From Escherichia coli (GTDB taxonomy: Bacteria > Pseudomonadota > Gammaproteobacteria > Enterobacterales > Enterobacteriaceae), in NCBI RefSeq assembly GCF_003334315.1, contig NZ_QOWR01000091.1: a stretch of DNA of 9,155 nt; one strand, given 5' to 3'. Position 1 is the stretch's first letter; every line of letters starts with the position of its first letter. The translations under genes were made by a program, and so were the position numbers. Below, piece by piece: positions 2,332 through 2,513 of the stretch. The notes under the pieces were generated by a model that worked only from the letters and a program-made list of their open reading frames with translations, made no database searches and was not told where the DNA came from.

Positions 2332-2475
2332 TTCGCACTCCTCAGATATCAGAAACTCCGCTCAAAGGATCTATGCTTCCTGCATGAGTGATCGGCCCGT
2401 TCGCCGATAACGATCTTCTTTCTTTAGCACGCTTTTTAGCAATTAATCTTGATGGAATTCTGACGAGAGCGAAAG

Positions 2476-2506
2476 AGGTAAGCCAGGTCGTACCCGACTT
2501 ACCTGG
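2476..2506 (-). terminator. Candidate hairpin just downstream of the ybcH stop; possible operon terminator
   Basis: Inverted repeat AGGTAAG (2476-2482) / CTTACCT (2498-2504), with an alternative CCAGG/CCTGG pairing, beginning 8 bp after the ybcH stop codon on the minus strand. The following U-tract is weak (CUUUCGCUCUCG), so this is tentative. Confidence 0.2.
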
Positions 2507-2513
2507 AGGAGAT

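Follow-up and report, generated by a model that had tools for sequence, protein, structure and literature searches.

Rho-dependent 3′ ends have been described that lie just past stable stem-loops lacking a U tract, with an enrichment of C over G in the sequence downstream (Dar & Sorek 2018, PMC6061677). The nfrBA-ybcH genes were taken as an operon by Junkermeier & Hengge, in a paper whose scope took in neither envY nor a terminator, and this operon is described as weakly expressed (PMC8669469). A presence/absence polymorphism of envY, which lies 182 bp downstream of ybcH, has already been published (PMC6854850). Here we analyze the ybcH-envY spacer within a window of 9,155 nucleotides, the whole stretch of DNA under study. 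Our best reading is that a hairpin just after ybcH is the 3′-terminal stem-loop of the nfrBA-ybcH mRNA, formed by Rho-dependent or weak intrinsic termination, and that envY is expressed mostly from a promoter of its own; we put the probability of this reading at about 0.55.

The window is E. coli chromosome, being 100% identical to several complete genomes, and shows 98.9% alignment identity to K-12 MG1655 between window positions 1477 and 8743. K-12 coordinates (NC_000913.3) are obtained by adding 584577 to the window coordinate. The limits of the genes and of the elements discussed below are collected in Table 1. The sense strand of the spacer is the minus strand, and its length of 182 bp, as given in the initial annotation, is correct by both the open reading frame limits and the RefSeq annotation. 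The EnvY N-terminus, MQLSSS, is also present in E. albertii. Beyond envY and argU, the window contains fimZ and then the end of sfmF. When the whole window was scanned with the Rfam 15 covariance models, only tRNA-Arg was returned; the same scan of the gap alone gave a single match at chance level (E 9.3). We also considered whether the gap could be a mobile or repeated element and rejected the idea, as the sequence occurs once per E. coli genome and has no match in phages. Plasmid records that match it are chromosome-sized or chromosome-derived.

Table 1. Features of the ybcH-envY boundary and its surroundings (window coordinates)
Feature	Position	Strand	Basis or remark
nfrB	6364-8601	minus	ORF list/annotation
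nfrA	3405-6398	minus	ORF list/annotation
ybcH	2514-3404	minus	ORF, 296 aa; RefSeq annotation in K-12 and strain ET670
ybcH stop codon, TAA	2514-2516	minus	End of the last nfrBA-ybcH gene
ybcH-envY spacer	2332-2513	minus (sense)	
Hairpin (sense-strand RNA), AGGUAAGUCGGGU-ACG-ACCUGGCUUACCU	2476-2504	minus	Repeat search and fold
Tail after the stem, CUUUCGCUCUC	2465-2475	minus	Pyrimidine-rich, G-poor, without U tract
Bipartite element, candidate promoter/operator	2423-2464	minus	Footprinting of orthologous gaps
Second inverted repeat, GUUAUCGGC-GAACGG-GCCGAUCAC	2388-2411	minus	Repeat search; presumed envY leader
AUCCUU, predicted anti-SD	2365-2370	minus	Predicted pairing with the envY SD
envY Shine-Dalgarno (SD), GAGGAG	2338-2343	minus	Read from sequence; 6 nt before ATG
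envY start codon, ATG	2329-2331	minus	ORF list and RefSeq annotation
envY	1570-2331	minus	ORF, 253 aa; RefSeq annotation in K-12 and strain ET670
argU, tRNA-Arg(UCU)	1448-1524	plus	

An inverted repeat had been noticed directly past the ybcH stop codon, and both a repeat search and folding of the sense strand show that it is real. The hairpin starts 9 nt past the TAA. At the DNA level its arms (2476-2488 and 2492-2504) are 13 nt long and complementary at 11 of 13 positions (85%). In sense-strand RNA these arms form an uninterrupted 13-bp stem closed by a 3-nt ACG loop, with six of the 13 pairs being G-C and two G·U; both DNA-level mismatches become G·U pairs on minus-strand RNA and C·A on the other strand. 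The stem was originally given as 7 bp, and the segments concerned (AGGTAAG, 2476-2482, and CTTACCT, 2498-2504) make up the outer part of the full 13-bp helix. Likewise, of the limits first assigned to the repeat, 2476 holds, whereas 2506 comes from another possible pairing of 6 bp, CCAGGU/ACCUGG (2483-2488 with 2501-2506; CCAGGT/ACCTGG as DNA), and the main stem ends at 2504. This alternative pairing competes with the main helix, which accounts for 70% of the ensemble. The folding energy of the hairpin is –19.1 kcal/mol on the sense strand (z –4.43), with 0 of 200 shuffled sequences as stable, and only –11.2 kcal/mol on the plus strand (z –0.89).

To assess conservation, we compared the three lineages in which envY follows ybcH: E. 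coli, E. albertii (L007 and two metagenome contigs, L026 and L144), and an enterobacterial lineage from metagenomes (L011/L012). The last is ∼77% identical to the window in nfrA-ybcH and encodes an EnvY-like protein 73% identical to EnvY; its gap could not be aligned to the window gap by BLAST. A hairpin is present 9–10 nt past the ybcH stop codon in all three lineages. E. albertii has UGGCAAGUAAGGC-AUC-GUCUUGCUUGCCA (13 bp, loop of 3 nt; sense –19.3 kcal/mol, z –6.2; antisense –11.5) and L011 has UGGCAAGCGGA-UAUAUU-UCCGUUUGCCA (11 bp, loop of 6 nt; sense –19.0 kcal/mol, z –6.5; antisense –14.3), compared to 13 bp, a loop of 3 nt, –19.1 kcal/mol (z –4.4) and –11.2 for E. coli. The stem sequence differs between lineages, and the energy is near –19 kcal/mol in each. 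The difference between sense and antisense energies is 5–8 kcal/mol across the three.

In a five-sequence alignment of the hairpin, 95.3% of the cells are standard pairs, and both-sided changes are seen in 6 of the 13 stem pairs. As a control, the 3′ partners were slid by 1–3 columns, which gave pairing of 16–51% and 0–2 pairs with both-sided changes. Further variation is found within species. Two substitutions occur together in divergent E. coli strains: 2483 C>T (plus strand), by which a sense U·G pair becomes U-A, and 2476 A>T, by which the terminal pair is opened. In E. albertii, the upper stem of one metagenome contig contains an A·C mismatch. This covariation is suggestive, and not conclusive, as it comes from only three independent lineages. 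Taken with the strand asymmetry based on G·U pairs, it indicates an element that belongs to the RNA of the ybcH/envY sense strand.

The stability of the hairpin is by itself unexceptional. When both strands of the 9.1-kb window are scanned in 41-nt windows, 0.45% of these fold at –19 kcal/mol or below, and about 10 loci reach this stability, as might be expected if it were a functionless inverted repeat that arose by chance. All the others, however, lie within G+C-rich coding sequence, leaving the hairpin as the only one of these loci in non-coding sequence. Moreover, its constant place after the stop codon is kept in lineages whose gaps are otherwise divergent, with compensatory changes and equal energies. 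We rate the hairpin above chance on three grounds: where it lies, how much more stable it is on one strand than on the other, and how it has been conserved in three lineages through compensatory changes. A functionless repeat is, in our view, highly improbable.

Equally improbable, in our estimation, is that the inverted repeat acts as DNA, whether as a palindrome to which an envY regulator binds or as a site of recombination at the margin of the variable region beside argU. The repeat does begin 9 nt into the sequence by which strains with and without envY differ, and complementarity at 11 of 13 positions would be compatible with such a role. But the two imperfect positions form G·U on sense-strand RNA and C·A on the opposite strand in each of the three lineages, which is an RNA signature. 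Furthermore, it is the complementarity of the arms that is conserved and not their sequences, and no further copies of the sequence were found in genomes, plasmids or phages.

We scored a site as terminator-like when at least 5 T (U) occurred in 8 nt, starting 0–2 nt past the stem. The stem itself is of the kind found in intrinsic terminators (G+C-containing, 5–20 bp, loop of 3–8 nt). Nonetheless, a scan of the window gap for intrinsic terminators returned no terminator-like site, the E. coli tail CUUUCGCU having at best 4 T in 8 nt. The L011 tail, ACCUCUUA, has 3 T in 8 nt and also fails the test, and the E. albertii tail, UUUCUUAG, passes and is borderline U-rich. Given that the stem is kept while the E. 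coli and L011 tails fail, the U tract is not the conserved part. The sequence preceding the E. coli stem, AUCUCCUCC, contains no A-rich tract; in E. coli, then, the stem has neither a U tract after it nor an A tract before it, as is seen for Rho-type ends.

Strains without envY provide a second view of the same boundary. Approximately 1,176 of 5,259 matching E. coli genomes cover only the ybcH part of a 351-bp query, and homology with envY-less strains ends exactly at the ybcH stop codon. ST131 (phylogroup B2) has no envY and carries a 173-bp substitute sequence after ybcH. This substitute opens with a canonical terminator, AAGGGAGCAAC-UUAGC-UUGCUCCUUU followed by CCUUUUC, which passes the terminator-like test. 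Two further envY-less Escherichia species have the canonical terminator type past ybcH, and Citrobacter amalonaticus, also lacking envY, has a G+C-rich hairpin without a U tract. A stable hairpin was found no more than ∼12 nt from the ybcH stop codon in every lineage examined, a set that includes the envY-less B2 strains, the two other Escherichia species and C. amalonaticus. The hairpin right past ybcH is universal, and the U tract is variable.

These observations bear on a simpler possibility, namely that the hairpin is a plain weak intrinsic terminator at which polymerase stops, with modest efficiency, at the CUUUC tail, and Rho has no specific role. In keeping with this are the stem (13 bp, 6 G-C pairs, –19.1 kcal/mol), the three U residues that begin one nucleotide past it, and the E. 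albertii orthologue, whose tail (UUUCUUAG) passes the terminator-like test. The true intrinsic terminators at this place in envY-less alleles would also make it a termination site by descent. On the other hand, E. coli (4 T in 8 nt) and L011 (3) fail the test even though the stem is conserved, and a Rho termination region has been called at this boundary (PMC7815308). We see this explanation as possible, though unlikely.

The Rho termination region in question peaks at K-12 587099 on the minus strand, which is window position 2522, 8 nt inside the 3′ end of ybcH (Adams et al. 2021, PMC7815308, supplementary file 2). In DirectRNA-seq data counted over 800-nt windows, upstream/downstream reads were 50/30 without bicyclomycin (BCM) and 72/152 with BCM, for a Rho score of 3.52 (p 2.8e-6; PMC7815308). 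The excess of downstream over upstream reads in the presence of BCM is more than read-through by itself can produce, and implies that part of the effect comes from transcription starting downstream of ybcH. This excess may represent de-repressed transcription, from envY's own or spurious promoters that Rho normally keeps in check, rather than termination of the ybcH transcript. Term-seq under three growth conditions yielded no curated 3′ end in the gap (Adams et al. 2021, PMC7815308, supplementary files 1 and 3), which may reflect merely the low expression of the operon.

Base composition around the stem was compared between lineages. C/G counts in successive 60-nt windows past the ybcH stop codon are 20/12, 16/9 and 11/11 in E. 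coli; the corresponding counts in L011 are 22/8, 20/4 and 19/8. In all lineages, C exceeds G from ∼100 nt inside ybcH to ∼60 nt past the stop codon, an excess that is mild in E. coli and marked in L011. The proposal that the nfr unit ends at the hairpin is borne out in part: the sense-strand hairpin and the Rho region fit, while the U tract is absent and the terminator test is failed.

Under our preferred reading, that of a 3′-terminal stem-loop with Rho-dependent or weak intrinsic termination, events at the boundary might proceed as follows. Past the ybcH stop codon, the nascent transcript would no longer be covered by ribosomes. The E. coli stem, as it lacks a U tract, is probably an inefficient stop for RNA polymerase by itself. 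Rho would be the main agent of termination, acting within or beyond the stretch rich in C over G that surrounds the stem and extends just past it. Exonucleases acting 3′ to 5′ would then shorten the RNA as far as the hairpin, and the hairpin would shield the operon message. A minor contribution from intrinsic termination is likely, in view of the U-richer tail of the E. albertii orthologue. We infer this order of 3′-end events.

A probable envY promoter had also been placed in the gap. Matching to consensus does not show one. The minus strand of the gap contains no pair of sigma-70 hexamers matching at least 9 of 12 consensus positions with a 16–18-nt spacer, and no matrix score beats those of shuffled sequences (best scores of 6.1 for E. 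coli, 8.1 for E. albertii and 8.7 for L011, compared to a shuffled best of 9.0 ± 1.8). The top sigma-70 matrix candidates lie at non-homologous positions across lineages. Footprinting of the orthologous gaps, by contrast, revealed a conserved bipartite element that gives the proposal a concrete candidate. In E. coli, this element consists of direct repeats, (G/A)TCAGAATTCC-ATCAAGAT, a 16-nt non-conserved spacer and TGCTAAA. The three syntenic lineages share (G/A)TCAGAWTCNNATCAAGAT, 16 non-conserved nucleotides and TGYTAAA.

The element is also found outside this locus. An EnvY-like gene of E. fergusonii, encoding a protein 68% identical to EnvY, lies in an unrelated context, between glutathionylspermidine synthetase and GST genes, and has ATCAGCTTTTTATCAGGAT-N16-TGTTAAA upstream. 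Over four lineages the consensus is TCAG-N6-ATCARGAT-N16-TGYTAAA, with the 16-nt spacing invariant and the spacer sequence different. A relaxed pattern, ATCA[AG]GAT-N14-19-TG[CT]TAAA, gave 15 matches in both strands of the 2.4 Mb of DNA fetched, and all 15 are upstream of envY-type genes, each with a 16-nt spacer. AdiY-type paralogues are without the bipartite element. The full pattern matches once in the window, with 0 matches expected by chance. A metagenome scan using the block-A pattern returned mostly chance matches, along with two real loci, both from E. albertii. The spacing is therefore fixed across orthologues, the positional conservation looked for in an envY promoter, and invariant spacing combined with a free spacer sequence argues for a promoter-like element.

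The two direct repeats are 11 bp apart, and TGnTAAAGA is laid out like an extended –10 element, with the final T missing from the TAAAGA hexamer. We regard the bipartite element as the best candidate for an envY promoter/operator on sequence grounds, and TGCTAAAGA as a candidate extended –10 element. From this position, envY transcription would be predicted to start near 2413–2416, giving a leader of ∼83 nt, and the direct repeats would span approximately –50 to –32, the place of a class II activator. That EnvY itself binds the direct repeats is a guess. Two other readings were rejected. A FliA (sigma-28) promoter was considered, since expression of the nfr operon depends on FliA and TAAAG is similar to the –35 element of sigma-28 promoters; by eye, the sequences 11 nt downstream (TCGGCGAA, TCGGACAA and TTGGGAAT) are a poor match to GCCGATAA, and the match is absent in E. 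fergusonii. A sigma-54 reading of TGGCAAG, which occurs in the stems of E. albertii and L011, fails because the GC element is missing at the required spacing.

Published expression data can be used to compare envY with the nfr genes. Compared with 23°C, envY mRNA is 9.3-fold more abundant at 37°C, and ybcH, nfrA and nfrB are absent from the lists of that study (PMC8544407). At 37°C, envY ranks with the most strongly de-repressed genes of an hns2 mutant of EAEC 042; the table in question is described as listing genes that go up in an hns mutant too (PMC7582179). An nfrB::lacZ fusion was FliA-dependent, expressed post-exponentially and ∼2-fold more active at 37 than at 28°C (Junkermeier & Hengge, PMC8669469). 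These data favour independent control of envY, with some read-through possible. A boundary between an nfr unit and a thermoregulated envY unit, as initially proposed, thus fits the hairpin, the Rho region and the distinct regulation, although it may be crossed by read-through to some extent.

Could envY instead be the fourth gene of the operon, with the hairpin serving as an intercistronic stabilizer or processing barrier that fixes how much upstream message there is relative to downstream message? Hairpins are U-poor in all three envY-bearing lineages, and canonical terminators are found in B2 and the two other envY-less Escherichia, a pattern that could mean that read-through is tolerated or wanted ahead of envY. 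Both units are higher at 37°C, and the gap is without a sigma-70 consensus promoter. Yet C. amalonaticus has a U-less hairpin with no envY after ybcH, and the bipartite element accompanies an envY-type gene at a non-syntenic locus, which argues for envY having its own promoter. The temperature induction and H-NS-family silencing of envY, set against the absence of ybcH and nfrAB from the temperature lists (PMC8544407), also speak against co-transcription, as does the excess of downstream over upstream reads with BCM (PMC7815308). On balance we find a four-gene operon rather improbable. In our preferred reading, envY would be expressed mostly from its own weak promoter within the gap, downstream of the hairpin. 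This promoter would be silenced by H-NS family proteins and would respond to temperature, and translation would initiate from GAGGAG-N6-ATG.

The strong SD ascribed to envY is indeed there, and its counterpart in E. albertii and L011 is AAGGAG. Shorter equivalents of the second inverted repeat can be seen by eye in these two lineages, and the consensus fold of the leader is weak (–3.25 kcal/mol). For both E. coli and E. albertii, the model predicts pairing between AUCCUU and the SD. It puts the chance of an unpaired SD at 0.04 for E. coli, 0.13 for E. albertii and 0.62 for L011, in which the AUCCUU-SD pairing is absent. When the upstream sequence was shuffled, this degree of SD occlusion was matched in 4% of cases for E. 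coli and 1% for E. albertii. An RNA thermometer was considered and rejected: the modelled probability of an unpaired SD in E. coli goes from just 0.02 to 0.05 between 23 and 42°C, and the SD is not sequestered in L011. In a 211-nt fold, the tail CGCUCUCGUCAGAA paired at long range with the envY SD; we rejected this pairing, as the partner is not conserved in L011. We also rejected a role as anti-SD to GAGGAG for CUCCUC just upstream of the hairpin, which is missing in E. albertii and L011.

On the plus strand, an open reading frame at 2388–2600 (70 aa) was rejected as a gene candidate, since it is interrupted by stop codons in E. albertii and L011. Position 586184 of U00096.2 presumably corresponds to about window 2385, if a shift of +778 to NC_000913.3 is assumed. 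A plus-strand Cappable-seq start has been reported at that U00096.2 position (PMC4782308), and a plus-strand Rho region at K-12 586977, which is window 2400 (Adams et al., PMC7815308). The presence of both a plus-strand start and a plus-strand Rho region indicates that antisense transcription occurs in the gap too.

The spacer is an ordinary operon boundary, an undescribed instance of well-known kinds of element and not a new kind. It supplies a concrete end for nfrBA-ybcH, the operon that makes the phage N4 receptor polysaccharide, and a concrete candidate for the region that controls envY, an AraC-type regulator that is thermoregulated and little studied. It also defines two boundary alleles in E. 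coli, one with envY and a U-less hairpin and the other with no envY and a canonical terminator. The boundary should be useful for annotation and for the design of reporter fusions and deletions; general concepts are unchanged.

A bolder joint reading would make the hairpin a deliberately leaky, Rho-conditioned terminator that couples envY partly to nfr, the bipartite element a possibly autoregulatory module, and the leader an SD-occluding one acting together with Rho polarity. We consider this combination doubtful. Were it true, expression of envY would depend in part, through the U-less hairpin, on nfr, a flagellar class 3 operon linked to c-di-GMP. A dedicated and possibly autoregulatory operator-promoter for envY would be formed by the direct-repeat/TGYTAAA module, and translation-dependent Rho polarity, by way of the SD-occluding leader, would be the source of the strong temperature response of envY.

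Several described systems can be set beside this locus. Relative to RNA thermometers and other SD-occluding leaders, the envY leader is similar in that AUCCUU-SD pairing is predicted in E. coli and E. albertii and that envY is temperature-regulated; it is unlike thermometers in that the predicted occlusion stays unmelted from 23 to 42°C and is missing in L011. In comparison with class II activator-dependent and extended –10 sigma-70 promoters, the candidate bipartite element differs in that its TAAAGA lacks the final T. It resembles them in having TGn one base before a hexamer starting with TA, and in the fixed distance of this part to an upstream block of two direct repeats spaced by 11 bp.

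For the hairpin, one comparison is with the intrinsic terminator of B2 strains (AAGGGAGCAAC-TTAGC-TTGCTCCTTT plus CCUUUUC), which shares the position and the sense orientation and whose stem-loop is about as large. The B2 terminator folds at –12.8 kcal/mol and has a U tract, whereas the window hairpin is more stable (–19.1 kcal/mol), is followed by CUUUCGCU and fails the terminator-like test. The other comparison is with the Rho class of Dar & Sorek. The locus departs from that class in that Term-seq gave no curated 3′ end in the gap and the Rho call has a resolution of 800 nt. It shares with the class a stable stem-loop past the last open reading frame, flanked by neither a U nor an A tract. 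The excess of C over G, mild in E. coli and already under way inside ybcH, may be a further likeness, as may the bicyclomycin-sensitive region reported at the site.

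Presence of envY is polymorphic among E. coli strains. A 351-bp query spanning the end of ybcH matched 5,259 E. coli genomes; in ~1,176 of these, including ST131 (phylogroup B2), the match was confined to ybcH, and homology broke off precisely where the ybcH stop codon lies. In ST131, the whole envY segment is replaced by 173 bp containing a canonical terminator, and this replacement is flanked by a tRNA-like att repeat on one side and by ybcH on the other. Based on the distribution of the gene, loss or replacement of envY in B2 appears more likely than gain elsewhere, because both E. 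albertii and a distant enterobacterial lineage (L011) possess envY.

Coordinates of features at the envY locus and in comparison loci
Feature	Locus	Coordinates	Strand
argU to envY stop codon	window	1448-1570	
Start of K-12 alignment	window	1477	
envY presence/absence segment	window	1531-2513	
C-rich, G-poor stretch in envY	window	~2115-2215	envY sense
62-bp envY leader piece	window	2348-2409	
Mini-ORF, MQEA-stop	window	2371-2385	minus
TATGCT, plausible -10	window	2372-2377	
Cappable-seq start, if shift holds	window	~2385	plus
ORF	window	2388-2600	plus
Rho termination region	window	2400	plus
End of K-12 homology	window	8743	
Sequence beyond K-12 homology, with 3' end of ISAs1-family transposase gene	window	8744-9155	
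ORF of this transposase	window	8872-9096 and beyond	
173-bp replacement of envY	L003 (ST131)	3828-4000	
Second copy of leader piece	L004 (EC02)	2501-2562	
Direct-repeat/16-nt/TGTTAAA module	L010 (E. fergusonii)	2794-2835	
Vgr-EnvY fusion ORF	L025	2501-3368	

The argU gene, encoding tRNA-Arg(UCU), and the stop codon of envY are 45 nt apart, and hence the DLP12 attachment site is empty in this strain. K-12 carries the 21-kb DLP12 prophage, ompT and appY included, between argU and envY, and the alignment with K-12 begins within the 3' part of the tRNA. At the opposite edge of the window, where K-12 has the cusS side, K-12 homology is lost and the sequence enters an ISAs1-family transposase gene at its 3' end. 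A genome search with the whole window hit a median of 13 places per genome, and this transposase sequence probably explains at least part of the many surplus hits.

A piece of the envY leader recurs with 100% identity in strain EC02, between two pseudogenes and adjoining a type VI secretion vgrG gene; such a second place was found in ~21 genomes. In another assembly, a Vgr (Phage_GPD) fragment is fused to EnvY in an ORF that adjoins cusRS at the contig end. The leader copy near vgrG and the fusion ORF together suggest rearrangements between the envY locus and a T6SS/vgr island.

The motif TATGCT is a plausible -10 element for a plus-strand Cappable-seq start in the ybcH-envY gap, which we place in the window on the assumption that a +778 shift to NC_000913.3 holds. 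This start was mapped to U00096.2 586184 (+) (PMC4782308). Rho termination on the plus strand has also been assigned to a region at K-12 586977, where read counts are 64/19 without and 96/91 with the Rho inhibitor bicyclomycin (BCM) (PMC7815308). These published data show that antisense activity is present in the gap. The ORF on the plus strand is not conserved.

On the minus strand, the conserved block ATGCAGGAAGCATAG can be read as a four-codon mini-ORF with no obvious SD. E. albertii has GTG...TAA at this position; L011 has ATGCAGGAG, as in the conserved block, in frame with envY and 13 codons 5' of the annotated start. The mini-ORF could be a chance occurrence or a small upstream ORF.

Within envY itself, ~120-220 nt into the ORF, the sense strand is strongly C-rich and G-poor (C/G of 18/5 and 18/4 in 60-nt windows), and E. 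albertii and L011 share this stretch. Its composition makes it a possible intragenic Rho entry site, which could contribute to the effect of BCM on envY.

E. fergusonii encodes an EnvY-like protein 68% identical to EnvY, its gene flanked by genes for glutathionylspermidine synthetase and a GST. The next relatives of EnvY are AdiY-type regulators adjoining adiA/adiC-like genes, and these regulator genes lack the direct-repeat module, the candidate promoter/operator of envY. The E. fergusonii gene has the same module upstream, ~170 nt from its ATG.
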